In this document: positions 4,622-49,680 of the stretch, in pieces
Layout: each line of letters begins with the position of its first letter
Numbering within the stretch: the first letter of the stretch is position 1
NCBI GenBank assembly: GCA_964639245.1
Contig: CAZXCU010000001.1
Span: 876,521-940,520, forward strand
Direction of reading: 5' to 3'
Source: an uncultured Anaerolineae bacterium
Lineage (GTDB): Bacteria; Chloroflexota; Anaerolineae; Aggregatilineales; J027
DNA: 64,000 bases
The notes under the pieces: generated by a model
Seen by the model: only the letters and a program-made list of their open reading frames with translations
Database searches by the model: none
Told to the model about the DNA's origin: nothing
Position numbers and translations under genes: made by a program

Positions 4622-4641
4622 AATACTGACAAGGAGGGTGT

Positions 4642-5199
4642 ATGGAAGCTATAAAACAAATCACCGATGTCGAACTGATTCAACTTCCAACGGGCAGGGG
4701 CGAACGCTATGAATTGATTGAAGGGGAGTTAAGAGTCATGTCGCCTGCGGGTAATCGTCATGGGCAGGTTGCCGCGTTATTTTCCGCATTGTTTTTCAAC
4801 TATCTCGAAGAACATCCGATTGGCGCGGTGGTTGGCGCAGAAACCGGCTTTTATACACGCGGGAACAAACGGACGGTTCGCGCTCCTGATGCAGCTTTTA
4901 TCCATCAAGACTCCATTCCCGAAGAAGGTCTGCCAGAGGGCTATTCTTTTATTGTGCCGCGCATTGTGGTTGAGGTAGTGTCCCCCTATGATACGGCTGC
5001 CGAAGTGGAGGACAAAACTCAAGAATGGCTGCGGTTTGGTGTCCTGTTGGTATGGAATGTTTACCCCAAAAATGAACGGGTTTACATTTATAAGCAAGGC
5101 GAACAAAGCCCAACCGTTTTATCTGAGGAAGATATTCTCACCGCAGGGGATATTTTGCCCGATTTTCAAGCGGCGCTTGGGAGGATTTTTAAACGCTAG
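4642..5199 (+). CDS. Uma2-family (DUF820) putative restriction-endonuclease-like protein
   Basis: ERYELIEGEL...MSPAGNRHG and the D...E.V core typical of the Uma2 PD-(D/E)xK-like family, which is abundant in Cyanobacteria and Chloroflexota. Confidence 0.8.
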   Translation: MEAIKQITDVELIQLPTGRGERYELIEGELRVMSPAGNRHGQVAALFSALFFNYLEEHPIGAVVGAETGFYTRGNKRTVRAPDAAFIHQDSIPEEGLPEGYSFIVPRIVVEVVSPYDTAAEVEDKTQEWLRFGVLLVWNVYPKNERVYIYKQGEQSPTVLSEEDILTAGDILPDFQAALGRIFKR

Positions 5200-5285
5200 G
5201 CGCAACACCAGACCAGCAAAATTGTTTTTCTGTGCGTGCGGCGAGTATAATCCCCGCTATATTGTATTTGAGGAGAGATATTTTT

Positions 5286-6908
5286 ATGAAACGGCTACTC
5301 CTGCTGGTTATTTTGATAGTCAGCCTAGCAGCAATTCCGACGATTAACGCACAGGAAGAAGCGTTTGCCTGCCCCAACACTGGTGGGACACTCATCACCG
5401 CCATTACCGGGGATCCGGTGAGCTTAAACGGGATTTATGCGAATGACGGTGCTTCGATTGCGGTGCTGTCGTTTGTGTTTAATCCCTTGACACTCGGTGG
5501 TGAAAACTGGGGAACCGAAATTAAGGGCGACTTGGCGGAAAGCTGGGAAGTTTCCGAAGATGGCCTGACATGGACGTTCAAACTGCATGAAGGCGTGACA
5601 TGGCACGACGGCGAACCGCTGACCGCCGAAGATGTGGTCTACACCTTCAACACCATTCAAACCTCGGAAGAAGATATTGCCCCCTTCCGTCCGCGCTTTT
5701 TGCAAAATGGCGAACCGATTCTGTTTGAAGCGGTGGACGATTTGACCGTAAAAGCCACCTTGACCGAGCCGAATGCGTCGTTTTTCACCGATATTAGCGT
5801 GCCGATTGTGCCAAAACACGTTCTGGAAGGGCAGGATTTGCGCGAAGGCCCGTTCAACCGTGAACCGGTTGGTTCGGGGCCGTTCCGTGTGACCGAATGG
5901 CGGACGGGTGAAAGCATTACGCTGGAAGCCAATGAAAATTACTTCAAAGGTCGCCCCTGCTTGGAACGGATTATTTTCCGTATTATTCCTGACGAACAGG
6001 CGCAGGTTGCCGCGTTGCAAACCGGCGAAGTGGACTTTTTGCCAAACATTCCTGGCGCATCGGTATCGATTTTTGAAGCTGACCCCAATTTCCAAGTTGC
6101 CATTGCGGAATCGGACAGCTTGTATCAGATGTTCTTTAATCTGTCGTTAGAACAGTTCCAAGACCCCAAAGTGCGCCAAGCGCTGATGATTGCGATTGAT
6201 CGTCAAGCAGTGGTGGATATTGTGCGGCAGGGCTATGGCGTGGTGCATAATTCACACTTTGACCATGTTGTGCCGTTCTATCAGCAGGACAAATTGGGCG
6301 GGTACGATTATAACCCCGAACTTGCCGGACAAATGCTCGATGAACTGGGCATTACCGATGCTGATGGCGATGGCTACCGCGATTTGGACGGCGAAACATG
6401 GGAAGTCAACATTGTGACCTTCTCCGGCAATTTCCGTGATTACGAAGATTATGCGATTGTCGTGCAGCAGTATTGGGAAGATATTGGCATCAAAACCAAC
6501 CTTGAACTGCGCGATTTGTCCACGCTGGTTGAGCAGTTGTATCAGGAACGGGTGGAAGAAAAAGAATATGAAGTCCATACCTCCGGTTGGGGCGTGATTG
6601 GCCCAGAACCGAACAGCTATGCCAACTTCTATATGTGGACAGATGAACTCGGCCCGAATCTGTCAAATTATCGCAACGAAGAAGTCAACGCGCTGTTTGA
6701 ACAGGCCCGTACCGAAACCGACTTCGAGGCCCGGATGGCAATTTACGAACAAATTGAAGCGCTTTTGTGGGCTGAACTGCCAACTATTCCGTTGTATCGC
6801 AATACCGAACCAGCAGTGATTAGCAATCGGTTCAATATCGAGAACGCAGTGCTGGACAATTCTATCGGGACGAATTTCCGTAATCCCGAACGCATTTACG
6901 AGAACTAG
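5286..6908 (+). CDS. ABC transporter substrate-binding protein, family 5 (peptide/nickel, DppA/OppA-like)
   Basis: Signal peptide MKRLLLLVILIVSLAA; SBP_bac_5 length and motifs. AGGAGAG SD 9 nt upstream of ATG 5286 and TATAAT at ~5245. The track ORF begins further upstream at 5232. Confidence 0.85.
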   Translation: MKRLLLLVILIVSLAAIPTINAQEEAFACPNTGGTLITAITGDPVSLNGIYANDGASIAVLSFVFNPLTLGGENWGTEIKGDLAESWEVSEDGLTWTFKLHEGVTWHDGEPLTAEDVVYTFNTIQTSEEDIAPFRPRFLQNGEPILFEAVDDLTVKATLTEPNASFFTDISVPIVPKHVLEGQDLREGPFNREPVGSGPFRVTEWRTGESITLEANENYFKGRPCLERIIFRIIPDEQAQVAALQTGEVDFLPNIPGASVSIFEADPNFQVAIAESDSLYQMFFNLSLEQFQDPKVRQALMIAIDRQAVVDIVRQGYGVVHNSHFDHVVPFYQQDKLGGYDYNPELAGQMLDELGITDADGDGYRDLDGETWEVNIVTFSGNFRDYEDYAIVVQQYWEDIGIKTNLELRDLSTLVEQLYQERVEEKEYEVHTSGWGVIGPEPNSYANFYMWTDELGPNLSNYRNEEVNALFEQARTETDFEARMAIYEQIEALLWAELPTIPLYRNTEPAVISNRFNIENAVLDNSIGTNFRNPERIYEN

Positions 6909-19165: not shown

Positions 19166-19338
19166 AACCTATCCGGGTGAACGGGCGGATGATGGGTATG
19201 TCCGCCTGCATAGAAAATAGCGCCTCATCTGTAACGTCCCTACCAGTGACCATGAATCCTAACGCCGAAAACCTGCGGGAACAAATACAGGCGTACAATC
19301 GTTGTAGGGGTAGAACAAATCTTACAAGGAGATTCGTC

Positions 19339-22300
19339 GTGCGAAAACTACTTTTTGTGACCTTCTTGTGCTTGCTGATGCTTGGCAGCAGCGCGGTGTT
19401 GGTCTGGGCGCAGCAGGAAGGGGAGGTTGAGCCGCAAATCGTGGCGGTGACTCCCTATCCGGGCGAGGAAATGCCCCTCGATGCGCCCCTGACCATCACC
19501 TTCAATCAAGCCATGGACAAAGAATCGGTTATGGCGCTCTGGTCAACTGAACCGTTCATTGGTGGAACGTTTGAGTGGCCTACAGAAGATACACTCGTTT
19601 TTAAACCCGATGAAGGTTGGGAACGCGGCGCAAGCTACGAATTCACGATCGGGCAGGGTTCAGCCGCTGCTAATGGGCTAGCACTCCCTGAAGATTACGA
19701 TTTTACGGTGCGGGCAGTGGGCGAACTGCTGGTGAATACGATTATCCCCTCCGGTAACGCCGAGGGAGTCGCCGCCGATGCGACGATTACCGTATCGTTT
19801 AACCGTCCGGTAGTGCCGTTGGGATCAACTGAAATTTTAGATGAACTGCCCGACCCGCTGACCATTGAACCCGCTGTGATAGGCAAGGGCGAATGGCTCA
19901 ACACCGCCATTTATCAATTTACGCCGGATGTGCCATTAGAAGGCGGGACAACCTATACGGTGACTGTTGGAGCGGGTTTAACCGATGTGACAGGTGCGGT
20001 GCTGGCGGAAGATTTTGTCTCCACCTTTCAGACGCTTGTTCCTGAAATCCTCTCGACTTATCCCTCTGAAGGGCAAACCGTTCCCCTTGAGCAAGCGATT
20101 CAAATTACTTTCTCTCAGCCGATGAATAAAGCGTCTGTGGAAGAAAGTTTTGTGCTTTCCAAAGGTGCAACTCCGTTTGATGATGAACGGGTAGCGGGGG
20201 CATTTAGCTGGTCAGAAGATGGGGCAACCCTTACTTTTACCCCCACTGAAAAATTGCAAATTGGTACTGCCTATCGTCTGGTGGTGGATGCGGCGATTGC
20301 CAAAGGTCTGGGCGGGGCAGGCTTGCGACAGGGACGTGATTTTATTTTTTCCACTGTCCCGCTGCCTTATGTGTCGTATACCTATCCTTATAATGGGGAA
20401 GTCGGGGTGTATCCCGGATACAATTCGGTGACGATTGGCTTTGCTTCCCCGATGAAGACCGAAACCTATGAAGGGCGGTACAGTGTTTCACCCGAACCAG
20501 CCGAAATTACCCCCTTCGCCTACAGCACGGAACTCACGTTGCAATTTGAAATGCTGCCGAATACGCAGTATACGGTGACACTCAAAGCAGGGGTGGAAGA
20601 TGTTTACGGCAACGCAATTGCATCGGATTACACCTTCAGTTTTACGACGGGGGAAGTCGCGCCTTACGCCTATCTGATTGATTCCAATCGGATGGTCGTC
20701 ACCGGGGGCTATCGGGAAAACACGGCCCTCTCCGTCAATGTGCAGGGAACACCGACCCTCCGTTTTCAGCTGTATCAAATTCCGGTGCAAGCACTATCAC
20801 AGTCGTTTTATTACCTGTATGAAGATGACATCGATAATATCGTCAATCAAAGTACCTTGATACGCGAATGGGATGAAACCTTTGATATTGGGATAGTGCG
20901 TGGCATCGCCAAAGTCAATCTCAAAGAAGGGGGTGGGGCGCTGCCATTGGGCAATTACCTTGTCATCGGGTATTTCAATCAGGACAGCTATGAAAATAGG
21001 ATGCCTGTCTCCATGGCGGTGGTCAACAATAGCATTGTCGTCAAACGCATGGAAGGCGAACTCATGGTCTGGGTGACGGACATGCAAACGGGCGAACCCG
21101 CCGTTGAACAGCAGGTCACTATTGCCAGTGGCAGTACAGAAGTGGGGCGCGGGGTCACGGATTCGGATGGCGTGCTGCGTCTGCCGCTTGAATATTACAC
21201 GGACTTGATCGTGACCGCCGAAGGTGCAGACCGCTACGGAATCTGGCGTTCCAGCCGTGCGCCTTCCGAACCAACAGAATCGCTGTATGTGTATACAGAC
21301 CGTCCAATTTATCGCCCCGGTGAAATGCTGTATTTCAAAGGCACCTACCGCAATCGGGATGATTTTAATTACACCCTCAGCGACCTTGACACGCTCAAAG
21401 TCCTCATTACGGATTACAATGGTATCACACTGCTGGATACACAGGTCGAATTAACCGAATTTGGCACGTTTAGCGGCGAAGTGCTGCTGCCCGATGACAC
21501 AGCGATTGGTCAAGTTTATATCAATATCATGCGGGCGGATGTTTCGATTGGCTATGCCTACGCGCAGGTTGCCGAATTCCGTGTGCCGGAATTTAGCGTC
21601 AGTGTCACCACCGACCAGACCGAAATTATTGGCGGCGACCCCTTGCGGGCGATTATCAACGGGAAATTTTTCTCCGGCGGGGCATTGAGCAATGCCAGCG
21701 TGAACTGGACAGCCACCGCCAGCCAGACCTTTTTCAATTACACCGGGCCGGGCAATTACAGCTTTTCCGACAGCACCTACTGGTGGGATTTTTATGCCTA
21801 CGATTACGGCTACTACGGCGGGTATTCTCGCACTTTAGCCAGCGGTACAGGCACCACCGATGCGAGTGGTAATTTGCTCATCGACATTCCGAACACTGCT
21901 CCTGAAGGTGCATACCCTGAGCAAGTGACCATTGAAGCCACGATTAACGATGAAAGTGGGCAGTACATTTCAGGTCGTACCAGCATCACCGTTCATCCCG
22001 GTGAAGTTTATGTGGGGGTCAAAACCGATGTGTATTTCGGGGAGGCCAACGAACCCTTTACCGCCGATGTCATCACCGTGAATCCCCAGAGTGAAGTTGT
22101 CCCGGCTCAAAAAGTGACCCTGCAACTGATTGAACGTCGCTGGGAACGCGAAGAAATTGAAGGCCAATTCGGGCGGTACAACTGGACTCAGCGTGAAATT
22201 GAGGTTGAAACCATCGAGGTTGTGACCGATGAAAACGGCATGGCGAGTTACGCTTTTACTCCGCCGAATGCGGGTATTTTCATCGTTAAAGCCAGCACCC

Positions 22301-25300
22301 GCGATTTGCGCGAACGTCTGCACCAGAGCAGTCGCCAATTGTGGGTCACGGGCAGTCAATATGTCTGGTGGGGTCAACCAAGCAACACTATTGATTTGAT
22401 TGCTGACAAAGACTCATATGTAGCAGGTGAAACCGCCCAAGTCCTCATTCCGATTTCACTGGAAGGGGTGTCCTATGTGCTAGTCACGCTCGAACGCGCT
22501 GGTGTCATCAGCCATGAAGTTGTGCGTGTCGAAGGCTCAACCCTTGTGTACGAAGTGCCGCTGACCGCCGAACATGAACCGGGTGTTTTCCTCTCTGCGA
22601 TGGTCATGCACGGCATTGATGAAGCCAATGCGGTTCCAACTTACCGCACAGGCACGATTCAACTGCCCGTTGAACCTGCCTCCAAAGCCTTGCAAATTAC
22701 GGTCACACCCTCCACGACGAACGCCCAACCCGGCGAAACAGTCATGTTGGATGTAGAAGCCAGCGATGCCAACGGCAACCCTGTACAGGCCGAATTTGGC
22801 CTTGCGCTGGTGGATGCGGCGATTCTTTCGCTCTCCTCCGACAACAGCCTCTCGCCCACCGTGCATTTTTACGGTTCGGTCAGCAATTACACCTACACCG
22901 ATACAATGCTGGTGGCGCTGATTGACGGGCGAATCGAGGAAGTCGAAAAAGATGAAGCTGACCGCGCAGCCAGCGAAGAATTGGCGGTGGCGGATGGTGT
23001 GGTTGCCAATGAAGCGCAGTTTGCCGCCAGTCCTGCCCCAACACAAACGGCCTTAGCTGCAACCGGTGGTGGCGGCGGGCCGGGCTTTGAACAGGTCGAA
23101 GTCCGCGAAGATTTCCAGCAAACTCCGCTTTGGGCTGCCCATGTTGTGACCGATGCCAATGGCAAAGCGCAAGTTTCCGTCACCATGCCGGACAATCTGA
23201 CCATCTGGAATCTGACCGCCCGTGCTGTCACCACCGATACGCATGTTGGCGAAGTTGAAGTGGATATTGCCAGCACCCTGCCTCTTCTGGTACGTCCGGC
23301 CACCCCGCGCTTTTTCGTGGTGGGGGATGAAGTTGCGCTGGCAATGGTCATCAACAACAACAGCGACGACGTGCAAAATGTTCAGGCCACGATGCAAGGC
23401 ACGGGTTTTGAATTGATGGACGGCGAATCGCTGGAAAAATCCGTTGAGATTCAACCCAACAGCCGCGCCCGCCTCGAATGGCTGGTCAAAATTCAGGATG
23501 TACCGGGGGTGGATTTAACCTTCATCGCGGTTGGGAATGACGGCTATCAGGATGCCAGCAAACCGCCTTTAGCGACAGGTGAAAATGGCACGATCCCTGT
23601 TTATCGTTACACCGCCCCGGATACGGTTGGCACGGGCGGAGTCTTGCGCGAGGCAGGCTCACGCACCGAAGGTATTACCATCCCGCCGATTGCGGACACC
23701 GACCAAGGTACGCTGACCATTCAGCTTGATCCTTCGCTGGCGGTCACGACGATTGACGCGCTGGACTATTTAGAAAATTTCCCGCACCAATGTATCGAGC
23801 AAACCGTCAGTCGCTTTTTGCCGAATGTGGCAACCTACCGCGCTCTGAAATCCTTAGGCGTGGAAGATGCCGAACTGGAAGTCAATTTGCGGACAGAACT
23901 CGATTTCGGTCTTGAAAAATTGAAAGCCGGACAAAATTTCGATGGCGGGTGGGGCTGGTTCAACGGTATGGAAAGCAACCCGATTGTCACCGCCTATGCG
24001 TTGCTGGGTCTGATTGAAGCGCGGGAAGCGGGTTACGACATTGACGTGAACATGATCGACGCGGCAGTGTCCTACATCCGTACCGATTTCATACAGCCCA
24101 CCGAAGATACCGATTTCTGGCGATTGAATCGGCAAGCATTTTATTTCTATGTGCTTTCGCGGGCGAGCGATGGACGCTACATGCCCTCCGCCGGTGAATT
24201 GGATGCGCTGTTCCGTGTACGCCTTGAAATGAGCAACTATGGCAAAGCCTTCCTGTTAATGGCCTATGTTGCGCATAGTGGCGACCATGCCAGCCAGCGC
24301 GATTCCCTGAGCAGCGATTTAATCACTGCCGCGCATTTATCCGCCACAGGCGCACATTGGGAAGAAGAACGGCGCGATTGGTGGAACTGGGGCAGCGACA
24401 CCCGCACCACCGCCATTGTCCTCTCTGCTCTGATTGACGCGGATACGCAAGCTATGGTTGACAATGGGCAAGGCCCCAGCGATTTGCTGCCGAATGTGGT
24501 GCGCTGGTTGATGGTGGCACGGATGGGCGACCATTGGGAAACGACACAGGAAACCACTTGGGCGGTGATTGGCTTGACCGATTGGATGGTGGCAACCAAC
24601 GAATTAAAAGGCAACTACGATTATTCGCTCATCCTCAATAGCCAAGAACAAGCCAGTGGCACGGTCACACCCGAAACCGTTCGTGAAGGGCAGGATCTGG
24701 TCATTGAAGTCGGTAATTTACTCTTGGATGAAATCAACAAAGTCACCGTTGTGCGGGGTGAAGGCGAAGGCGCACTCTACTACACCGCCCATCTGACACT
24801 TGAATTGGATGCTAGCGAAGTGACCGCCCTCAATCGCGGGGTGGGGATTGTCCGCGAATACTTCCGCGCTGGTGAAACCGAACCCGTCACAGATGCCAAA
24901 GTCGGCGAAATATTGACCGTCCGCTTGACGGTTAATATCCCCGAAACGATTTACTATTTCGTGCTGGAAGACCCGCTTCCGGCAGGGGTAGAAGCGCTGG
25001 ATACCTCCTTGCTGACCACGACTCAACTTGTGGACGGGCCGCAGCTATCCCCGCAGTACGACCCCTACTATTACTGGTGGTGGTGGTATTGGGATCATAC
25101 CGAAATCCGCGATGAGTCGGTGAATTTGTACGCCGATGTGTTGCCGCCGGGAACGTATGTCTATTCATATCAGGTACGGGCAACCGTGCCGGGTAAATTC
25201 CAGACGATGCCCTCTCACGGCTATGCGTTCTACTTCCCCGAAGTCTTTGGGCGCACCGACGGCGCATTGTTCACCGTCAGCCCTTCTGAAGATACTATCG

Positions 25301-25311
25301 CTGCACAGTAA
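19339..25311 (+). CDS. Bacterial alpha-2-macroglobulin family protein with intact thioester (CIEQ), N-terminal signal peptide and Ig-like (SbsA-type) domain array
   Basis: CIEQ thioester codons at 23791-23802 (FPHQCIEQTVSRF); MG-domain repeats; A2M receptor-binding-like C-terminus; AAGGAG SD 7 nt before GTG 19339. The track ORF extends further upstream to 19177. Confidence 0.85.
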   Translation: MRKLLFVTFLCLLMLGSSAVLVWAQQEGEVEPQIVAVTPYPGEEMPLDAPLTITFNQAMDKESVMALWSTEPFIGGTFEWPTEDTLVFKPDEGWERGASYEFTIGQGSAAANGLALPEDYDFTVRAVGELLVNTIIPSGNAEGVAADATITVSFNRPVVPLGSTEILDELPDPLTIEPAVIGKGEWLNTAIYQFTPDVPLEGGTTYTVTVGAGLTDVTGAVLAEDFVSTFQTLVPEILSTYPSEGQTVPLEQAIQITFSQPMNKASVEESFVLSKGATPFDDERVAGAFSWSEDGATLTFTPTEKLQIGTAYRLVVDAAIAKGLGGAGLRQGRDFIFSTVPLPYVSYTYPYNGEVGVYPGYNSVTIGFASPMKTETYEGRYSVSPEPAEITPFAYSTELTLQFEMLPNTQYTVTLKAGVEDVYGNAIASDYTFSFTTGEVAPYAYLIDSNRMVVTGGYRENTALSVNVQGTPTLRFQLYQIPVQALSQSFYYLYEDDIDNIVNQSTLIREWDETFDIGIVRGIAKVNLKEGGGALPLGNYLVIGYFNQDSYENRMPVSMAVVNNSIVVKRMEGELMVWVTDMQTGEPAVEQQVTIASGSTEVGRGVTDSDGVLRLPLEYYTDLIVTAEGADRYGIWRSSRAPSEPTESLYVYTDRPIYRPGEMLYFKGTYRNRDDFNYTLSDLDTLKVLITDYNGITLLDTQVELTEFGTFSGEVLLPDDTAIGQVYINIMRADVSIGYAYAQVAEFRVPEFSVSVTTDQTEIIGGDPLRAIINGKFFSGGALSNASVNWTATASQTFFNYTGPGNYSFSDSTYWWDFYAYDYGYYGGYSRTLASGTGTTDASGNLLIDIPNTAPEGAYPEQVTIEATINDESGQYISGRTSITVHPGEVYVGVKTDVYFGEANEPFTADVITVNPQSEVVPAQKVTLQLIERRWEREEIEGQFGRYNWTQREIEVETIEVVTDENGMASYAFTPPNAGIFIVKASTRDLRERLHQSSRQLWVTGSQYVWWGQPSNTIDLIADKDSYVAGETAQVLIPISLEGVSYVLVTLERAGVISHEVVRVEGSTLVYEVPLTAEHEPGVFLSAMVMHGIDEANAVPTYRTGTIQLPVEPASKALQITVTPSTTNAQPGETVMLDVEASDANGNPVQAEFGLALVDAAILSLSSDNSLSPTVHFYGSVSNYTYTDTMLVALIDGRIEEVEKDEADRAASEELAVADGVVANEAQFAASPAPTQTALAATGGGGGPGFEQVEVREDFQQTPLWAAHVVTDANGKAQVSVTMPDNLTIWNLTARAVTTDTHVGEVEVDIASTLPLLVRPATPRFFVVGDEVALAMVINNNSDDVQNVQATMQGTGFELMDGESLEKSVEIQPNSRARLEWLVKIQDVPGVDLTFIAVGNDGYQDASKPPLATGENGTIPVYRYTAPDTVGTGGVLREAGSRTEGITIPPIADTDQGTLTIQLDPSLAVTTIDALDYLENFPHQCIEQTVSRFLPNVATYRALKSLGVEDAELEVNLRTELDFGLEKLKAGQNFDGGWGWFNGMESNPIVTAYALLGLIEAREAGYDIDVNMIDAAVSYIRTDFIQPTEDTDFWRLNRQAFYFYVLSRASDGRYMPSAGELDALFRVRLEMSNYGKAFLLMAYVAHSGDHASQRDSLSSDLITAAHLSATGAHWEEERRDWWNWGSDTRTTAIVLSALIDADTQAMVDNGQGPSDLLPNVVRWLMVARMGDHWETTQETTWAVIGLTDWMVATNELKGNYDYSLILNSQEQASGTVTPETVREGQDLVIEVGNLLLDEINKVTVVRGEGEGALYYTAHLTLELDASEVTALNRGVGIVREYFRAGETEPVTDAKVGEILTVRLTVNIPETIYYFVLEDPLPAGVEALDTSLLTTTQLVDGPQLSPQYDPYYYWWWWYWDHTEIRDESVNLYADVLPPGTYVYSYQVRATVPGKFQTMPSHGYAFYFPEVFGRTDGALFTVSPSEDTIAAQ

Positions 25312-25413: not shown

Positions 25414-27054
25414 ATGAATTTTAAAGTCAACGAAACAGCAACCAAATTGCGGGGAGGCTACTATACCCCGCCCGATATTGCTCAATTTTTATTAAAGTGG
25501 GTTTTGGTTAGTGCACCAGAAAATTTGCTTGAGCCTAGCTGCGGGGATGGCGCATTTTTCCGTACTTTAACCCATATAGACCATCCATCCCTAAAATCTA
25601 TCACTGCCTTTGAGATTGAACCGCATGAAGCGGCTAAAGCTCAAGAGTCTGCCAACCAACTGAGCAATCTTGAAACTAAACTTCATGCTAGCGACTTTCT
25701 GACTTGGGCATTAACTAACTTGCTTATGCCTCCCTTATTTGACGCAGTTATTGGTAATCCGCCCTTTATTCGCTATCAATATCTTGATAAGCACATCCAA
25801 ATGATTTCACAAGAAATTTTTAGATGCTCACAGCTTAATTTTACAAAACATACCAATCTATGGGTTGCCTTTGTTATTGCTTCCTTGCGTTTACTCAAAC
25901 CACGTGGTCGTTTGGCAATGATTGTCCCCTCCGAACTGCTTCATATCTTGTACGCCCAGTCGCTTAGGGGCTATTTAGCCCAAACCTGTTCAAAAATTAT
26001 GCTGTTCGACCCCCAAGAAATATGGTTTGAAAATACCTTGCAGGGGGCGGTGCTGCTGCTGGCAGAGAAAAAAGCTCTCCCCACCGACAAATCTTTTGGG
26101 GTCAGCATTGTTCAAACGCATGATAAAACCTTTTTAGACCAACATCCCGAAGATTATTTCCAAACTGCGCACTATGCCAACGGAGAAACCGTCGAAGGGA
26201 AATGGATGACCGCCTTTTTAAACGAGTCAGAACGCACGCTTTTAAAGGCCGCTAGACAACACATTCCTCAATTTAGCGAAGTAGCGGATGTCGCTGTTGG
26301 GATTGTCACAGGCGCAAATAAATATTTTCTTGTCCCAGACTATGTGGTTGAAAAATATGAGCTTACGAAGTGGGCGCACCCCATGTTTGGGCGCAGTGAG
26401 CATGTTCCCGGCATCATTTACGACCAAGCCGTCGCACAACAAAACAAGCAGGCGGGGCTGCCTACGAATTTTCTCTGGTTTCAAAATGAAGCCGAACTAT
26501 CCGAGTCTGCCCAAAATTATATCAAAGTTGGCGAGGCCGAAAGCCTCCACACACGCTATAAGTGTAGAGTCCGCGAGCCTTGGTACACTGTCCCCTCTGT
26601 CTATGCAACCCCAGTTGGAATGCTTAAACGCAGCCACGACTTTCCTCGCCTTATTTTTAACAAACTAGAGGCTTTCACGACGGATACCGCCTATCGTATC
26701 AAAATTAAAAAGTTCGATGCTCATAGTCTAGTCTATTCATTTTTAAATAGCCTCACGGCTTTGACGGCTGAATTAGAAGGAAGGCACTATGGCGGAGGAG
26801 TCTTGGAACTTGTGCCTTCCGAAATCCGCCAACTCCTTATCCCTGTTTCGCCCGCAACCGAACAACAAGTTTATGAGCTGGATGCACTCATTCGCAGCCG
26901 CACTTCGGCGGAAACTGTCTTGGCAAAACAAGATGAAATTTTGCTGGCAAAATTTGATAAACCAAGTATTTTAGCTTTGCAAGCCGCATGGTTACGGTTG
27001 AAATGCCGCAGACAGCGGCAACCACAAGCAGCTGAACCCGAAGAAGTTATGTGA
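25414..27054 (+). CDS. Type II restriction-modification N6-adenine DNA methyltransferase (gamma class, TaqI/Eco57I-like) with C-terminal target-recognition domain
   Basis: Motif I EPSCGDGAFF and motif IV VIGNPPFIRY (NPPF); GC content is visibly lower than in neighbouring genes. Confidence 0.8.
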   Translation: MNFKVNETATKLRGGYYTPPDIAQFLLKWVLVSAPENLLEPSCGDGAFFRTLTHIDHPSLKSITAFEIEPHEAAKAQESANQLSNLETKLHASDFLTWALTNLLMPPLFDAVIGNPPFIRYQYLDKHIQMISQEIFRCSQLNFTKHTNLWVAFVIASLRLLKPRGRLAMIVPSELLHILYAQSLRGYLAQTCSKIMLFDPQEIWFENTLQGAVLLLAEKKALPTDKSFGVSIVQTHDKTFLDQHPEDYFQTAHYANGETVEGKWMTAFLNESERTLLKAARQHIPQFSEVADVAVGIVTGANKYFLVPDYVVEKYELTKWAHPMFGRSEHVPGIIYDQAVAQQNKQAGLPTNFLWFQNEAELSESAQNYIKVGEAESLHTRYKCRVREPWYTVPSVYATPVGMLKRSHDFPRLIFNKLEAFTTDTAYRIKIKKFDAHSLVYSFLNSLTALTAELEGRHYGGGVLELVPSEIRQLLIPVSPATEQQVYELDALIRSRTSAETVLAKQDEILLAKFDKPSILALQAAWLRLKCRRQRQPQAAEPEEVM

Positions 27055-28204
27055 TTTCTAAGGTGAAAATATCATTTTCTAATGGGGCATATAGCCGAAA
27101 AGTTCTACCACCAAGTTGCAAATCACGGATAGTATTCGCCAGCGCTCCCCAATGAAGCATCGTTGTATAATTCCTTTGTCCTGCTTCACCGCTTGGCTTA
27201 TGGCTAATCGTTAGCTCATGAACTCCATAATTTCTTCCAAGAATATAAACCTCAAACACTATCACAGTCGTTTCACGGTTTGAAGGCCTGCGTTTCCCAA
27301 CCGACCATTCAAAGCTCCCAAATAGATCGTAACGAAAATAGCTTGTTTGGTCTATAGGTAGGTCATTCACTGTCCACTCTGCTTGTGTCAAACGTAAACC
27401 GCCTGTTGGATGCCCCGCCTGACTTTGAACATCAGATAAAGGCAACCCTTCTTTTTCCCACACAAGCTTTCCACGCTGGCTTGAGATAGAAAGCGTGATT
27501 TTAGGGCTTTTAATGGGTTTATATGGGGCTTTTGGAATAGGCTCATTCCCAAAAAGAGAATTAGGGATTGTTTCATTAGCAGTATCTTTTTTAGGTGCTG
27601 AACTTTGCCTTGTGGTTTCCCGCCGTTGTGCCTCTGAAATTATCTCTCCTCTTGCAATTATATTATCAATAAGGTTAGAGGTAAGAGATTGCATAATGGC
27701 ATCAGGCGGGTTCAAAAAACGCCCTAAAGCCTGTTTATACTGCTCATATTCATGGTATTCGGTAGTCAAATCAAAGCTAAGCTGTGTAGAAGCCTCATAA
27801 TTGCTAAATAAACCACCTTCAGTAAGGTTATGAGAGCCGATGAAAAGTTCTGCTCTCAATCCAGTTGCCTCAAAAAGATAAATTTTAGGGTGAAAAGTGT
27901 GTCCTGGTTGGTTGTTATGCGCGACTTTTGTTTCTATTCCCGATTCCAAAAGTATTTGAAGCGCCTCTATTGAAGTACCTTGATGATCAATTCCCACCAT
28001 GATTTGAATAGTTGCGCCGGCATTACGGGAGACTTCCAAATAAGGAATTAAAAATTTTATTGCTTGTTGGTTCGCAAAAGCTGCAATAACCCATATCTGG
28101 TCAAAGATAGGCTCAGTGGAGTTTAATAACTCGACCAGTTTATCTCCTAATCGAGAGAGGCTATTCTCAGAGTCGAAGGGTTGGGTCAAAAGCGTAATTT
28201 TCAT
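27047..28204 (-). CDS. PLD-family (HKD) restriction endonuclease, BfiI/NgoFVII-like, with C-terminal B3-like DNA-binding domain
   Basis: HPKIYLFEATGLRAELFIGSHNLTEGG = HxK(x)4D(x)6GSxN phospholipase-D nuclease motif; convergent and 8-bp overlapping with the methyltransferase; AT-rich. Confidence 0.7.
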   Translation of the reverse strand: MKITLLTQPFDSENSLSRLGDKLVELLNSTEPIFDQIWVIAAFANQQAIKFLIPYLEVSRNAGATIQIMVGIDHQGTSIEALQILLESGIETKVAHNNQPGHTFHPKIYLFEATGLRAELFIGSHNLTEGGLFSNYEASTQLSFDLTTEYHEYEQYKQALGRFLNPPDAIMQSLTSNLIDNIIARGEIISEAQRRETTRQSSAPKKDTANETIPNSLFGNEPIPKAPYKPIKSPKITLSISSQRGKLVWEKEGLPLSDVQSQAGHPTGGLRLTQAEWTVNDLPIDQTSYFRYDLFGSFEWSVGKRRPSNRETTVIVFEVYILGRNYGVHELTISHKPSGEAGQRNYTTMLHWGALANTIRDLQLGGRTFRLYAPLENDIFTLEIT

Positions 28205-41753: not shown

Positions 41754-42836
41754 TCACTTTACCTTCGGCGTTTCAAAACTTTCGGCAAAGTCATTGATAA
41801 ATTCTGGTTGCAGATAAGTCAGGACATCGTGTACCTGTGCGACCTTTGTTTTGAGCGCCCGATAGGGAATAAATTTACAGATCTTATTCAGGGGTGGCTT
41901 GAGATGGGTAAAGGCCGGGCGGTTGATTTCGCTGAAAACTTTGGTGCGGCGTTCATCCGGTGCGACGATATACAGGCGAATGTGAATATTCGGGTGCATC
42001 GAAACCAGATCCGCCATCCGAAGCAACCCCGAATAAACTGCACTGGTATGCTCAATTTCAAACGCGGCGATGATGGCATTTTCGCGCAGCCACAGCACAT
42101 CAATCAATTCAATCGTGCGGTTGGTGGCAGCATCAAATTGGCGGGGCAGGCTGTCCAGCAATCGCGGGATGCTTTGAAAATATTGCCCCTCAAATTCGCG
42201 GTGACGGTCATTGCGGGCGACCCACACATCCAGACCCATTTTGCTGCCCGTTTCGAGCAGCAGCCATTGAATTTCATCATGCGTGGCGGATTCAACCGTT
42301 TCTTCGGGCAGTTCCTCGACATCTTCCGGCACGGTCACTGCTCCGGTGACGGATTCATACAAAGCCAGCGCCAATTTATCGGGGTCAAGTTCGCGGAAAA
42401 TGGGGTCTTCGCTGGCGTTTTCCAGTGCGGCAATGATCACCGCCGCATCTTCAGGGGTTTCCTGCACGGGGGCGCTGCGAAAATGGATTGTCCAGCCTCG
42501 CGGGTCAGTGAGATTTTGAAAATAGGCCAATTCGCTGCGTAAATCGGTCACGGGGATGCCATATTCCGGCAGCAGCGCCAGCATCACCCGCACAGGCACA
42601 CGCGCCGAAAAAACACGCTCCGACCAGATGGGTTTATAGCCTTTGTAGGGTGCGCCCGTGACTTCCATCAGGGCAACATAGCGCGAAAGTCCGGTCAGGT
42701 AGACTAGCACAATGTCGCCGGCTTGCATCTGCTGGACGGTTGCCCATCGCCGTTCGGGGAACCCCGCCACCGTTCCACCCGCGTTAAGGAATTCCTGCCA
42801 TGTCTGCCATGAATAGAGCTGCGTCCAGTAATTCAT
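41754..42836 (-). CDS. EVE (PUA-like) domain protein fused to a C-terminal nuclease-like domain; candidate modification-dependent (type IV) restriction enzyme
   Basis: N-terminal MNYW...RRW..V.QM.AGDIVLVY...FRSAPV fits the EVE fold signature. C-terminal ELIDVLWL...AAFEIEH has a D / E-x-E(K) restriction-endonuclease-like pattern. Confidence 0.5.
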   Translation of the reverse strand: MNYWTQLYSWQTWQEFLNAGGTVAGFPERRWATVQQMQAGDIVLVYLTGLSRYVALMEVTGAPYKGYKPIWSERVFSARVPVRVMLALLPEYGIPVTDLRSELAYFQNLTDPRGWTIHFRSAPVQETPEDAAVIIAALENASEDPIFRELDPDKLALALYESVTGAVTVPEDVEELPEETVESATHDEIQWLLLETGSKMGLDVWVARNDRHREFEGQYFQSIPRLLDSLPRQFDAATNRTIELIDVLWLRENAIIAAFEIEHTSAVYSGLLRMADLVSMHPNIHIRLYIVAPDERRTKVFSEINRPAFTHLKPPLNKICKFIPYRALKTKVAQVHDVLTYLQPEFINDFAESFETPKVK

Positions 42837-42859
42837 GCCCTTATTTTAACACGGGCGTT

Positions 42860-44095
42860 CTATCCTACTCCAACCGTTTTTTGCCAGATTATTAAATTGC
42901 CAGCATAGTCCGCGCTGGCGAGATAATTGCCATCGGGACTCCATTGAAGAAAAGTTACTATCTCTTCATGTTGATGCAGCGTAGCCACCTGCTGTTCTAA
43001 CTCGATATCCCAAATGTGAACTTCGTGATATCTATTTTCGCTAAAAGGATCAACAGGCGTTTCAGCAAAATACTTCCCATCATGGGTAAGTGATGTGAGG
43101 ATTGTGGTATCATCAAAATCAATTTGAAATAATAATTTTTGTCCAAATTTATCCCAAAAGTATATATGGCGTAACTCAGCGATAAGGCAATAATTTCCTT
43201 CTTTATCCCACCCATAAGCATAATGAGTTCTAATATCTGGCATATCAAAAACGCTGATGGCTTGTTCGCTCTCAAAATCCCATAAAGTGAGATAGCCTGT
43301 AAAGCGCTGTGTATCTGCATGACGAGTAGTGATTAAAGTGCCGTTAGGATTCCATTTAGCTTCCCATAAAGTCATTTTGGTGATAGAGGTCATTTTTTTA
43401 ATCAATTTATTGGATGAAACTTCCCAGATTTGAAGCTCTAAACCATTAGCGATAGCGAGATATTCCCCATTTGGACTCCATGTTGTGTCATAGGCATTGG
43501 ATGAATAAATCGAGGCAGTATTTGACTCAAGAAATTTCCATACTTTTCCATCATAAGCAATTGAATCGCTCATTGGACTCCATACAAAAACATCAATATT
43601 TGTATTGGTTAAGACTGCGCGTAAATTACCTGTACTATCCCATATTTTCAGTGTTTTATCTTGACTGTAGGTTGCCAGATATACCCCATTTGGACTCCAA
43701 TCCGCCTGTAGTATGAGATCTGTATAACCTTGCAGGATTGCAACAGGTTGTTGTGCTGCTAATGACCAGATTTCTATTGTCGGTGCATTGCTATACCAGA
43801 TTGCAATCAGTTCACTATTGGGATGCCATTGCCAGTTCACCTCACTTGCTGCTGTATCTAACAGGACATTACCAGTGGCTACCTCGTAGACTCTCATTCT
43901 GCTTGAATTTCTTTCGATTGTTCCGTCCAGCATATACGCGATAATTTTTTGGCTGTCAGGACTCCATTGCATCGGTTGGTTAGTATTCGCATCAATAGGG
44001 AGGTTGAGTTGGAGAATGTCTATCCATGTGACGTTATTTTGGACGGGTAAAAAGGAACTTATTAAAAAGATAGCCAAGCTGATTCTTATTAGCAT
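42860..44095 (-). CDS. Secreted WD40/beta-propeller repeat protein
   Basis: Signal peptide and >=7 repeats with W-S-P-D/N-G signatures (WSPNGEYLA, WSPDGNYLA, WSPNGVYLA). Confidence 0.7.
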   Translation of the reverse strand: MLIRISLAIFLISSFLPVQNNVTWIDILQLNLPIDANTNQPMQWSPDSQKIIAYMLDGTIERNSSRMRVYEVATGNVLLDTAASEVNWQWHPNSELIAIWYSNAPTIEIWSLAAQQPVAILQGYTDLILQADWSPNGVYLATYSQDKTLKIWDSTGNLRAVLTNTNIDVFVWSPMSDSIAYDGKVWKFLESNTASIYSSNAYDTTWSPNGEYLAIANGLELQIWEVSSNKLIKKMTSITKMTLWEAKWNPNGTLITTRHADTQRFTGYLTLWDFESEQAISVFDMPDIRTHYAYGWDKEGNYCLIAELRHIYFWDKFGQKLLFQIDFDDTTILTSLTHDGKYFAETPVDPFSENRYHEVHIWDIELEQQVATLHQHEEIVTFLQWSPDGNYLASADYAGNLIIWQKTVGVG

Positions 44096-44103
44096 AAAAA
44101 TCC

Positions 44104-44559
44104 TTATGGGGTAGCCAGAGGTGAAATGAGAGAAATTCTGTCCCCGAAACGCTTCATGTCATCAATGTTAATGGTCAATAGGGTGTCAATGCCGTGTACC
44201 AGCATCGTGGCAACGATATTGGCATCATGAATTTGCTTGCCAATTGTCGGATATTCTTTCAAAAGTTGCAGCAGTTGCTCGGTGGTTTGTTGAGTTTCGT
44301 CTGCGGCACGGAACAATGTCTGGATGTTTTGTACATACTTAATGCGTTGTTCTATAGACATTTGAATTTGGAGCGTGTTGGGATGCGTCGCTTGAACCAG
44401 ATATTCTCGAATGATTTGGCGACTAATCCATAATTCAATATTATCATTCCACATTTTATCCACAATAGCGAGACATTCTTTATGATGTGGTAATGTGCTG
44501 TATATCGCTCGTAACAGCACATTCGTATCAACAAACGCTTTAGCGCCCCTCATCGTCAT
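44104..44559 (-). CDS. vapC: PIN-domain toxin (VapC family)
   Basis: FVDTNVLLRA N-terminal PIN acidic motif; 20-bp overlap with the upstream small antitoxin gene. Confidence 0.75.
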   Translation of the reverse strand: MTMRGAKAFVDTNVLLRAIYSTLPHHKECLAIVDKMWNDNIELWISRQIIREYLVQATHPNTLQIQMSIEQRIKYVQNIQTLFRAADETQQTTEQLLQLLKEYPTIGKQIHDANIVATMLVHGIDTLLTINIDDMKRFGDRISLISPLATP

Positions 44560-44767
44560 ACCAATCCTCGCGCCTCACGGATGGTTCATTTTTCATCGGA
44601 ATATCGCTCACTATTGCGTTGAGTAACGCCTTGCGTTCTTGGTTTGTTAATTCGCGCTGTTGAGAGACCCCCTGCAAATGGGCAATTAAGTCGGCTTTTT
44701 TATCGGGTGGAAGCTGCTTGGCTAATTCGACCAGTGTTTCAAATGGAATTTGCAATGTCACCGTCAT
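44540..44767 (-). CDS. Putative antitoxin of the VapC module
   Basis: 75-aa protein immediately upstream of and overlapping the PIN gene. Confidence 0.5.
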   Translation of the reverse strand: MTVTLQIPFETLVELAKQLPPDKKADLIAHLQGVSQQRELTNQERKALLNAIVSDIPMKNEPSVRREDWYDDEGR

Positions 44768-44883
44768 GGCTTATTTCCTCCTAATTACAAGCATAACCCA
44801 TCCTGTTATTTTACAGCACTTTCATTGGTTTAACCGCCGTTCAATGGTATATTTACCCGCAACAAAATGTTGCTATAAGGATT

Positions 44884-47268: not shown

Positions 47269-47502
47269 ATGTCAGATATGATGGTCAAAGTGGATGTACT
47301 TCAATTGGTGTCGCAACTATCGCGGGAGGAAAAAGAACACCTGCTGCGTTATCTGGAAAATGAGTTTGGGATTTTCCCGCGTCCCATCATGGAAATTACA
47401 CCGCCTATGACCGAAGAAGAAGCGCGTGCATTCGCTGATGAATTAGGAAAGGCTGGGCCAATTTCTCATTACATTATTGAAGAAAGGCAAGAAGGATATT
47501 AA
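47269..47502 (+). CDS. Putative antitoxin of the VapC module
   Basis: 77 aa, AGGTAGG SD, stop overlaps the start of the PIN gene (TAATGG). Confidence 0.5.
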   Translation: MSDMMVKVDVLQLVSQLSREEKEHLLRYLENEFGIFPRPIMEITPPMTEEEARAFADELGKAGPISHYIIEERQEGY

Positions 47503-47963
47503 TGGCAATCTATTATATGGATTCTAGTGCCTTAATAAAACACTATCTCACAGAAAAAGGTTCAAATTGGATCAATAACCTCTTTGACCCTATGCAAGGA
47601 AATTTGCTTTATATTTCACGAGTCACCGATGCTGAATTTGCTAGTTCGCTTTCTCGAAGAGTGCGAGAAGGGGCAATTTCACAAGCTGACCATGCAAATT
47701 CGTTAAATCGGTATTTTTACCAGCAATTGGTATTTCTGAGAATAGTTGAGATGGATACTGCTTTAACCGCAAAAGCAGCTCAACTAACTTTGACACGGGC
47801 GTTACGTTCTAACGACAGTATACAACTTGCCAGTGCCATAAAAATCAATGCGCTTTTTGTAACCTATAAAGCAAGTCTGATTTTCTTATCTGCCGATGTT
47901 CGTCTATTAGCGGCTGCACAGGCGGAAGGGCTGCTTGTAGATAATCCTGAGAATTATCCGTAA
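47502..47963 (+). CDS. vapC: PIN-domain toxin (VapC family)
   Basis: MAIYYMDSSALIKHYL PIN N-terminal motif; ~40% GC by eye. Confidence 0.8.
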   Translation: MAIYYMDSSALIKHYLTEKGSNWINNLFDPMQGNLLYISRVTDAEFASSLSRRVREGAISQADHANSLNRYFYQQLVFLRIVEMDTALTAKAAQLTLTRALRSNDSIQLASAIKINALFVTYKASLIFLSADVRLLAAAQAEGLLVDNPENYP

Positions 47964-47982
47964 TTTTTAGCAGGAGTTTTTC

Positions 47983-48183
47983 ATGTCCACACGACACATT
48001 TTGATTTATCCCGGTGAAGATGGGTATTTTGTGGTGGAATGTCCGAGTTTGCCGGGCTGTGTGAGTCAAGGCAAAACCCGTGAGGAAGCCATCGAAAATA
48101 TCAAAGAAGCAATTGAACTTTATATTGAAGATTTGATTGAAACTGGGGATGAAGTATCTAAGAATTGGAATTTATGTCTTTAA
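47983..48183 (+). CDS. hicB: HicB-family antitoxin (UPF0150), orphan with no adjacent HicA
   Basis: ILIYPGEDGYFVVECPSLPGCVSQGKTREEAIENIKEAIELYIEDL is a near-consensus HicB N-terminal RNase-H-like fold sequence. Confidence 0.8.
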   Translation: MSTRHILIYPGEDGYFVVECPSLPGCVSQGKTREEAIENIKEAIELYIEDLIETGDEVSKNWNLCL

Positions 48184-48310
48184 TTTTTATCTACATGAAA
48201 ACTACATTTTGTTTGAAATTTATTACAAAATGAACATTAGTTCTTTACTATCATCCAAAATATGATACGCTTGCATAAACTTCATGGGAAAATTAAGAGG
48301 TGGTGTTTGT

Positions 48311-48916
48311 ATGTCGAAGAAAAAGGACAAAAGTAAAAATTTAAATGGTTATTACATTCAAATATTTAGCCCTAATGGGAGCTATGAAAGCGAAATAAAC
48401 AAAGGACAACACGATAAGGTAATGTTGTTTCTGCTGACCAACTCAAATCTCCCGTCGTCTATTAATTTAACTTCGCCCATCGAAGAATCTAAAATTGACA
48501 ATCAAGTTGCAAACAAAACTAATGAAAATCCACAAACTCGGCCTCTGCGTAGAAAAACCCGTCAGGATACATACACTGTTGTAAAAGACTTAGATCTTGT
48601 AAAAGGAAAAGATGGTGTAAGCCTACAAACCTTTTACAATCAATATAAAGCAGATACGATATATGAAAAAAATGTATTGTTTGTTTACTACCTTAAAAAT
48701 TATTTAGGAATAGAACAGGTCAATGTAAATCACATATTCAGCTGTTATAAAAAACTTGGTGTTAGATTACCCAGTTTACTAAAACAGAGCATTTTAGACA
48801 CTGCAAGTCGTCAAGGTTGGCTTGATACTTCTACAACCGATAATATTCGGTTGACTGTTTCAGGAGAAAATGCTGTTGAGCATGACATTAAGAAAGCGGA
48901 TGTAAAATCTGAATGA
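48311..48916 (+). CDS. Hypothetical protein A of the AT-rich cassette: Lys-rich disordered N-terminus and C-terminal wHTH-like domain paralogous to the N-terminus of protein B
   Basis: AAGAGGTGG SD 6 nt before ATG 48311 (the track ORF begins at 48284). C-terminal VLFVYYLKNYLG...NHIFSCYKKLG...DNIRLTVSGENA aligns with DLVKYFLYFITV...DIRNCFQELH...SGYRLERSEEQ of the next protein. Confidence 0.5.
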   Translation: MSKKKDKSKNLNGYYIQIFSPNGSYESEINKGQHDKVMLFLLTNSNLPSSINLTSPIEESKIDNQVANKTNENPQTRPLRRKTRQDTYTVVKDLDLVKGKDGVSLQTFYNQYKADTIYEKNVLFVYYLKNYLGIEQVNVNHIFSCYKKLGVRLPSLLKQSILDTASRQGWLDTSTTDNIRLTVSGENAVEHDIKKADVKSE

Positions 48917-49680
48917 AAGATAGTTTGAACCGCCTTATATCACTTCTCCCTCATATAGATACTGATAATGGACGAGATTTAGTAAAGTATTTTTTGTACT
49001 TTATAACTGTCGAAAATAATCAATCTAGCGCTACTGCCTCAGATATTAGAAACTGCTTTCAAGAGTTACATATGACTCCTTACACTCGAATTAGTCAATT
49101 CCTAAGCGAAGGTAGTAGCCGTAAGTATATGAAGAAACCTATATTTGTAAGAGTTGGAAAATCAGGTTATCGGTTAGAAAGAAGTGAAGAGCAACGTATA
49201 AAAGAGTTGGTAAAAACCGAACCAATTAAGGTACATACTAGCAAAACATTGCGAGAACTTTTAGATAATTTAACTTTAGAAAGAGAAAGGCAGTTCCTAG
49301 AAGAAACCATTAGATGTTATGAAGTAGATGCTTATCGAGCAGCTATTGTTATGGGTTGGATTCTAACGCTTGACCATTTATACGAATATATTATCAACCA
49401 TAAATTAACGGACTTCAATTATGCAATGAGTAAAAATCAGGGAATAAAATTATCTAAAGTAAATAATAAAGATGACTTTAGCAGTCTTAAGGAGAGCGTG
49501 TTCATAGATGTTTGTAGATCAGCAAATATTATTTCAAACGATGTGAGAAAAATCTTAGACCAAAAACTTGATATTCGTAATTCTGCGGCTCATCCATCCA
49601 ATATTGCTATAGCAAAATTAAAGGCTACTGAATTTTTAGAAGACCTCGTTACAAATGTAATAGTAAAGTACCCTATCTAG
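48913..49680 (+). CDS. Hypothetical protein B of the AT-rich cassette: N-terminal wHTH-like domain and C-terminal HEPN-like domain with Rx4H motif (Abi-like putative RNase)
   Basis: 4-bp ATGA overlap with protein A; C-terminal KLDIRNSAAHPSNIAIAKL matches the HEPN / Abi_2 R-x4-6-H motif; strongly AT-rich. Confidence 0.5.
   Translation: MKDSLNRLISLLPHIDTDNGRDLVKYFLYFITVENNQSSATASDIRNCFQELHMTPYTRISQFLSEGSSRKYMKKPIFVRVGKSGYRLERSEEQRIKELVKTEPIKVHTSKTLRELLDNLTLERERQFLEETIRCYEVDAYRAAIVMGWILTLDHLYEYIINHKLTDFNYAMSKNQGIKLSKVNNKDDFSSLKESVFIDVCRSANIISNDVRKILDQKLDIRNSAAHPSNIAIAKLKATEFLEDLVTNVIVKYPI

Follow-up and report, generated by a model that had tools for sequence, protein, structure and literature searches.

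We analysed a 64,000-nucleotide stretch of DNA (the window) from an uncultured Anaerolineae bacterium of the order Aggregatilineales (contig CAZXCU010000001.1 of assembly GCA_964639245.1), focusing on a gene that encodes an EVE-type domain fused to an NmeDI_C cleavage domain. The open reading frame (ORF) at 41754..42836 on the minus (-) strand is complete in the ORF list, with an ATG start and its stop codon within these coordinates, and encodes 360 amino acids (aa). The protein consists of an EVE/UPF0310 PUA-like beta-barrel, the predicted reader of a flipped base (residues 1-143; 42408..42836, -), an inter-domain linker with conserved R148, D151, L155, G165 and P170 and an acidic tail (residues 144-183; 42288..42407, -), and the NmeDI_C (PF27126) domain, with a core of the PD-(D/E)xK type (residues 184-360; 41757..42287, -). 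A reading made from the letters and their translations (the sequence-only reading) had described an EVE reader joined to a PD-(D/E)xK-like nuclease with E-x-E in place of E-x-K, and had proposed a candidate type IV, modification-dependent restriction enzyme. All the peptide strings it quoted are found in the translated ORF, and both domain identities were borne out by profile comparison with EVE/PUA and nuclease families and by fold comparison of the model.

Judging from its alignment with homologs, the gene does not look like one in decay. The ORF is uninterrupted, and its homologs comprise one protein at 99% identity, one at 84% identity from the Aggregatilineales/Anaerolineae metagenome-assembled genome SB15, and more than 4,143 others. 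The N-terminus lies flush with those of the homologs, and essentially all positions conserved in at least 90% of the family are kept, the exceptions being T9S, C45V, S104A and S326R; the linker is two residues shorter than in most homologs. The AlphaFold2 model reached a mean predicted local distance difference test score (pLDDT) of 90, with lower values in the linker (57-72 for residues 151-180).

The window protein taken alone scored below threshold against the Pfam EVE family PF01878 (15.5 bits, cut-off 23, E 0.017), and its match to NCBIfam PRK00809, over residues 1-136, was likewise under that model's cut-off (E 1.4e-5). At the level of the family, 35 of 41 aligned members matched PF01878 (best 9e-7), and the family profile matched archaeal UPF0310 proteins end to end, namely PH1033 (E 3.8e-7) and MJECL36 (E 4.7e-7). 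The model, too, gives the N-terminal domain a predicted PUA-like beta-barrel fold. Together with the profile matches, this agrees with the EVE/PUA-like call of the sequence-only reading: the N-terminal domain belongs to the UPF0310 subgroup of EVE-type, PUA-like barrels. Across the family, W4, T12, W13, W31, D41, Y46, W71, R79 and R120 are invariant, and E15 (at least 90% conserved) and F119 are nearly so. The base-binding pocket of the EVE enzyme VcaM4I is formed by T11, E15, W22, W82 and Y130 (PMC7897488), and the conserved residues seen here are compatible with a correspondence to it. In particular, conservation marks T12-W13-Q14-E15 (42792..42803, -) as candidate pocket residues, whose equivalence to those of VcaM4I is drawn by sequence position only.

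The C-terminal domain matched the PADLOC profile PDLC03534 REase_II (E 5.9e-17), with residues 184-313 covering profile positions 176-311 out of 351. Its assignment to PF27126 was taken from the precomputed annotation of the 99%- and 84%-identical proteins, not from direct scoring. Over the C-terminal half only, the window protein is 35-39% identical to the products of plasmid genes that carry a type II restriction endonuclease annotation. When these plasmid relatives are included, H186, Q190, W205, N209, D210, D246, W249, E260 and E262 are invariant, as are S269, G270, R273, P293, D294, R306, P307 and F309; D246, E260 and E262 do not vary, whether the form is EVE-fused, Mrr_N-fused, TPR-fused or of the plasmid NmeDI type. 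Applied to the models, DSSP assigned a helix at 186-199, a strand at 203-206, a strand at 247-251 with D246 just before it, a strand at 254-261 that holds E260 and is followed directly by E262, a helix at 267-280 and a strand at 287-292. This corresponds to the alpha-beta-beta-beta-alpha-beta core of PD-(D/E)xK nucleases, a topology taken from the secondary structure of the models, with the aspartate at the start of beta-2 and the ExE at the end of beta-3. The predicted catalytic hairpin, D246-x13-E260-x-E262-H263 (DVLWLRENAIIAAFEIEH; 42048..42101, -), is defined by the translation, by invariance and by the DSSP strands, and the E260-I-E262-H263 motif on which the nuclease call of the sequence-only reading was based was confirmed.

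The canonical lysine of (D/E)-x-K is absent from this domain, and every NmeDI_C protein examined carries E-x-E. Across these alignments, E-x-E is a variant of the whole family and not a sign of decay in the window gene. The active site of BamHI comprises D94, E111 and E113, so E-x-E sites can be active. We infer that D246, E260 and E262 form a metal-binding catalytic site. Fold comparison of the cleavage domain returned matches to Hna, BspD6I, NgoMIV, FokI, BsaWI and SdaI. Sequence-profile methods were less informative: hhalign of the C-terminal family alignment against approximate sequences of the FokI cleavage domain and BamHI yielded nothing meaningful (probability about 1% or less), and the family and C-terminal profiles found no nuclease match among all PDB sequences at E values up to 10. 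Because hhalign gave no meaningful alignment, the D/E-x-E motif was mapped on solved active sites from secondary-structure topology only.

The namesake of the domain, R.NmeDI, is a 351-aa type II enzyme that recognises RCCGGY and cuts on both sides at a distance, releasing 25-bp fragments (PMC2095814). Since its cuts lie at a distance from the site, its recognition and cleavage parts would be separable. Three things tie the window protein to NmeDI: the name of the Pfam family, the length of the PADLOC profile (351 positions) and, in related systems, a matching order of methyltransferase, restriction and, in some cases, vsr genes; no protein named NmeDI or derived from Neisseria was among the top 120 matches of the last homology search.

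To what else this cleavage domain is attached was seen in a profile search of 1.84 billion representative proteins, which returned 2,278 clusters (50% identity) at E <=1e-3 and 552 at E <=1e-30. NmeDI_C was always C-terminal, in proteins of about 230-490 aa. Among the best 148 representatives, 40 have an EVE N-terminus, 61 are short or fragmentary, and 47 have some other N-terminus, 100 aa or more in length. Of these 47, 10 carry Mrr_N, through which the type IV enzyme Mrr binds DNA, and five carry TPR repeats. One cutter is thus found joined to three readers, namely the NmeDI sequence reader, the Mrr reader and the EVE reader. The TPR-NmeDI_C fusion carries no obvious nucleic-acid reader. Shorter PF27126 proteins had been considered as a separate class lacking EVE and were dismissed as such, being mostly fragments of the same architecture on short contigs.

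The family is patchily distributed: among 185,579 species genomes searched as a collection, at least 584 stretches were confirmed. We surveyed 76 genome loci (about 970 kb in all, with 110 flanking genes) from Chloroflexota, Acidobacteriota, Planctomycetota, Actinomycetota, Bacteroidota, Methanothrix, Methanobacterium and others, in which the proteins are 41-59% identical. Identity at this level between archaea and distant bacterial phyla points to horizontal transfer. The protein gave no tblastn match in 50,697 phage records, and on plasmids tblastn matched its C-terminal half alone, the full-length EVE fusion not being found. The plasmid NmeDI_C genes (1412-2674 in L001, 5461-6522 in L002 and 5197-6510 in L003) encode proteins of 353-437 aa whose N-termini have no Pfam match, and they lie amid copper or heavy-metal resistance genes or transposases. 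No methyltransferase is directly adjacent to them in the PLSDB tables, with one found two genes away in L001; these enzymes may be methyltransferase-independent too, or the tables may be incomplete.

The relation of the EVE-fused form to methyltransferases separates it from its type II relatives. We found no methyltransferase next to the window gene, and two NPPY-motif ORFs at 58-60 kb, considered as methyltransferases, proved to be solute-binding proteins. Relatives at 60-67% identity likewise lack one. Across the survey, 72 of the 76 loci had no adjacent methyltransferase: the 110 immediate neighbours comprised 126 Pfam families, with N6_N4_Mtase in just four of the 110 genes. A candidate methyltransferase, recognised by a profile match or a DPPY/NPPY-type motif, lay within 4 kb in about 8 of the 76 loci, and no ORF in the roughly 970 kb carried C5-methyltransferase motif IV. 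No neighbour family recurred across the 76 loci beyond lineage-specific synteny. GyrB, DnaN-like and ribonucleotide-reductase neighbours were considered as operon partners and set aside, each occurring in three or four loci as lineage-specific synteny. The EVE-NmeDI_C gene adjoins gyrB in three Planctomycetota genomes (the L071, L075 and L076 group), and a DnaN-like gene is nearby elsewhere; this is the only recurrent housekeeping association seen and is probably lineage-specific synteny near a replication-origin cluster. Some members of the family have another restriction system beside them, for example XhoI or an Eco57I/MmeI-like type IIG enzyme.

As a control, six enzymes of the NmeDI type, about 357-363 aa long, were inspected; they come from Salmonella, E. 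coli, Roseobacter, Alicyclobacillus, Serratia and one further genome. In all six, the start of the nuclease gene is overlapped by an upstream PF00145 C5-methyltransferase gene. One of the six, seen on two contigs, has in addition a C-protein-like helix-turn-helix gene upstream and vsr downstream. The overlapping organisation is the one published for NmeDI itself (PMC2095814). The contrast, six of six controls against roughly none of 76 loci, shows that the EVE-fused form has left the pairing of restriction and modification (R-M). The window gene therefore does not have the make-up of an NmeDI-type type II R-M system: no methyltransferase is adjacent, the REase_II match is confined to the C-terminal half, and the N-terminus is an EVE domain. 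The simplest explanation for the loss of R-M pairing in an active nuclease is that it depends on a modification absent from the host, and the same inference has been applied to stand-alone reader-nuclease fusions in the literature (PMC6765204, PMC7641849, PMC11037411).

In our view, the gene product is likely to be a modification-dependent (type IV-like) restriction endonuclease that is complete in a single polypeptide. A predicted reader and a nuclease lie in one ORF and, the SB15 ortholog excepted, no cognate methyltransferase accompanies them. With the contrast in methyltransferase linkage, this leaves the type IV assignment of the sequence-only reading as the best explanation after our follow-up. 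Under such a mechanism, the EVE/UPF0310 barrel would scan DNA and flip a modified base into its conserved aromatic and polar pocket, while the linker of about 40 residues would tether an NmeDI-type PD-(D/E)xK domain without sequence specificity of its own. The nuclease domains would probably dimerise, as in other two-domain modification-dependent enzymes (PMC7897488), and both strands would be cut through the D246/E260/E262 metal site, at a more or less constant distance from the base that the reader holds. Host DNA would be spared through lack of the target mark, not through a partner methyltransferase.

Several observations weigh against this interpretation. The modelled EVE fold is as near to the YTH readers of N6-methyladenine (m6A) as it is to VcaM4I or THYN1, and 5mC/5hmC, the ligands named in the sequence-only reading, are tentative for this UPF0310-type domain. 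In SB15, a 385-aa CcrM-type N6-adenine methyltransferase with GANTC specificity begins 2 bp past the stop codon of the EVE-NmeDI_C gene. Finally, the window and SB15 proteins are 84% identical, compared with 85% for a flanking CCG/Fe-S housekeeping protein. The gene is still near the CCG/Fe-S gene in a 67%-identical relative, and most neighbourhoods are metabolic; in this lineage, it behaves as a stably inherited chromosomal gene, not as a fast-evolving island gene.

The SB15 methyltransferase (9083-10240 in L004, also present in L005 and L006) is full length, has a RAMA domain and matches the CcrM structure PDB 6pbd with an E value of 4.9e-142. The claim of the sequence-only reading that the gene is isolated and has no methyltransferase accordingly holds for the window and for 72 of the 76 loci, and fails for this ortholog. 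A tblastn search found no homolog of the SB15 methyltransferase anywhere in the 64-kb window. The DNA homology between the window and SB15 ends about 19 nt before the stop codon, so that gain and loss of the methyltransferase are indistinguishable. That an intact, 84%-identical protein occurs both with and without the methyltransferase implies that the nuclease does not depend on a CcrM-type partner. If CcrM is active in SB15, the reader is presumably not aimed at m6A in GANTC. The SB15 locus also holds two TIR_2 genes 2-4 kb upstream (3525-5689).

On its other side, the window gene is bordered by a low-GC insertion relative to SB15 (42852-44870, about 2.0 kb, GC 0.39-0.43), which ends 15 bp before the ATG of the EVE gene and sits in what is in SB15 a 66-bp divergent intergenic region between the CCG/Fe-S and EVE genes. 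Within the insertion lie the gene of a WD40 beta-propeller protein whose N-terminus is hydrophobic (42860-44095, -), a gene of the PIN/VapC type (44104-44559, -) and, overlapping the latter, an ORF for a 75-aa antitoxin-like protein (44540-44767, -). The WD40 gene lies 23 bp upstream of the EVE gene, and a convergent pectin-acetylesterase-like gene lies 24 bp downstream. A scan found no terminator-like site between the WD40 and EVE genes, and read-through transcription from the former into the latter is possible; around the gene, the promoter and terminator scan returned no more sites than shuffled controls.

The slow evolution of the gene and its mostly metabolic neighbourhoods keep alive the idea of a housekeeping or chromosome-maintenance nuclease, whose EVE domain would read an endogenous modified or damaged base in repair, replication or recombination. 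We regard this as unlikely, given that the family occurs so patchily among the species genomes, that its sequence identities between archaea and distant bacterial phyla point to horizontal transfer, that the 76 loci share no partner gene for repair or replication, and that the sister architectures have Mrr_N or an R-M context. The likeness of the reader to YTH domains and the neighbouring toxin-type genes bring to mind a different role, in which modified RNA or a single-stranded target would be attacked by an abortive-infection or toxin-like effector with a YTH-like reader and a domain cutting RNA or single-stranded DNA. This is quite unlikely in our view: the cleavage domain has homology to a genuine restriction enzyme of double-stranded DNA, the VapBC/WD40 cassette is lineage-specific and missing in the SB15 ortholog, and no antitoxin or immunity partner is conserved. 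In addition, the solved EVE-nuclease fusion VcaM4I works on double-stranded DNA (PMC7897488).

The descent of the C-terminal domain from a type II family, the annotation of the plasmid relatives as type II enzymes and the CcrM-type gene in SB15 could instead be taken to mean that the protein is a conventional, modification-blocked type II or IIE-like enzyme, with its methyltransferase elsewhere in the genome or downstream and the EVE domain acting as an effector or self-recognition domain. The few N6_N4 methyltransferases among the flanking genes, and the candidates within 4 kb, would fit such an arrangement. Most of the surveyed loci and the window itself are without an adjacent methyltransferase, however, and the overlap with a C5-methyltransferase gene in every NmeDI-type control means that unlinking is not a habit of the family. 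Moreover, the EVE domain wholly replaces the recognition N-terminus of NmeDI, with the profile match restricted to residues 184-313, and the intact, 84%-identical protein occurs both with and without the methyltransferase, which speaks against dependence on it. A type II enzyme of this kind is thus very unlikely. Highly improbable, finally, is a catalytically dead nuclease in which E-x-E has supplanted E-x-K and which serves only as a modified-DNA-binding or regulatory factor. The canonical lysine is indeed missing, but E-x-E sites of the BamHI type can be active, and D246, E260 and E262 are invariant over thousands of proteins, including the clade of the active namesake NmeDI. On the side of an inactive protein stands the finding that some reader-PD-(D/E)xK fusions, those with DUF3427, showed little activity in vitro (PMC6765204).

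Within the type IV-like interpretation, the modelled fold by itself would not discriminate between a reader of 5-methylcytosine and one of m6A. A C5-modified or hypermodified cytosine is slightly favoured as the target base over general m6A, on weak and indirect grounds, because the host encodes an N6-adenine methyltransferase and no C5 methyltransferases are nearby. The host gene in question encodes an M.Eco57I-like N6-adenine methyltransferase (25414-27054, +; M_Eco57I_C E 4e-80) about 15 kb from the EVE gene. It is convergent with the gene of a 385-aa PLD-family nuclease (27047-28204, -; PLDc_2 E 2.5e-7), and the two, which lie in a patch of lower GC (25414-28204), may constitute a type II R-M pair. 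We hold it possible, if doubtful, that the UPF0310/YTH-like EVE domain reads something other than 5mC/5hmC, for instance a base hypermodified in phages or an N6- or N4-methyl mark in a specific context; joined to the fixed-distance cutter of NmeDI, such a reader would make the protein a modification-dependent endonuclease of new specificity. A weaker possibility is a reader-gated nuclease that senses the host's own methylation as a self or cell-cycle signal, and not only a foreign mark; it is raised by the operonic arrangement of the SB15 ortholog with its CcrM-type methyltransferase, together with the housekeeping-like evolution of the gene.

Elsewhere in the window, a 2,044-aa alpha-2-macroglobulin-like protein with multiple Big_5, MG and A2M domains is encoded at 19177-25311, directly upstream of the Eco57I-like methyltransferase gene. 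GC is lowest in the patch at 47502-49680 (0.34-0.41), where a further gene for a PIN domain (47502-47963, +) is followed by two ORFs that overlap each other and match nothing in Pfam (48284-48916 and 48913-49680, +); the patch may represent one more small cassette of mobile or defence type.

The working model proposed here has precedents among characterised enzymes. In MspJI and AspBHI, an SRA-like reader of the PUA superfamily flips the modified base and a tethered PD-(D/E)xK-type nuclease then cleaves a set distance away, without the involvement of a methyltransferase; the window protein would share this model and differ from them in reader subfamily and in nuclease family. Mrr, composed of Mrr_N and Mrr_cat, is similarly a solitary two-domain reader-nuclease, and sisters of the window protein join Mrr_N to NmeDI_C (10 of the 47 above), but Mrr combines a winged helix with Mrr_cat where the window protein has an EVE barrel and NmeDI_C. 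With R.NmeDI, it shares a homologous C-terminal domain and the signature H186, N209-D210, D246, E260-x-E262, R273 and D294, whereas the RCCGGY-specific N-terminal half of NmeDI, its overlapping C5-methyltransferase gene and the occasional vsr have no counterpart here. The EVE-HNH enzymes VcaM4I/TspA15I (PDB 6yex) would work in a similar way; their nuclease is HNH and not NmeDI_C, and their EVE domain has no detectable sequence similarity to the UPF0310-type domain. YenY4I, with its EVE-DUF3427-PD-(D/E)xK architecture, likewise unites an EVE reader with a PD-(D/E)xK nuclease and is predicted to be of type IV, but the window protein lacks the DUF3427 middle domain, and its nuclease is NmeDI_C and not of the DUF3883 type. 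PH1033 and MJECL36 (PDB 1wmm and 2p5d) differ in being stand-alone, single-domain archaeal UPF0310 proteins of unknown function, with no fused nuclease.

In their 2020 census, Bell, Wolf and Koonin listed EVE-PD(D/E)XK fusions among putative enzymes of type IV (PMC7641849), so that the general kind is already catalogued and the window protein is a further member of it; the presence of the EVE-NmeDI_C family in that census could not be confirmed. Our literature search returned no paper naming NmeDI together with EVE, and none characterising an enzyme of the EVE-NmeDI_C architecture.

For annotation, these results mean that neither PF27126 nor "type II restriction endonuclease" should be passed on as a label to the EVE-fused form, which lacks the methyltransferase. 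Endonucleases that depend on modification, MspJI, AbaSI/PvuRts1I and VcaM4I among them, serve both in phage defence and as tools for epigenetic mapping. The family described here is large and spans bacteria and methanogenic archaea, and the ligand of its EVE domain and the pairing with CcrM in SB15 are useful questions ahead. Stand-alone archaeal structures of UPF0310 have been available since 2005, and a ligand could be assigned to this group by characterising a single member of the family. The same work would define the E-x-E site of NmeDI_C, and might possibly yield a new enzyme that cuts modified DNA at a fixed distance.

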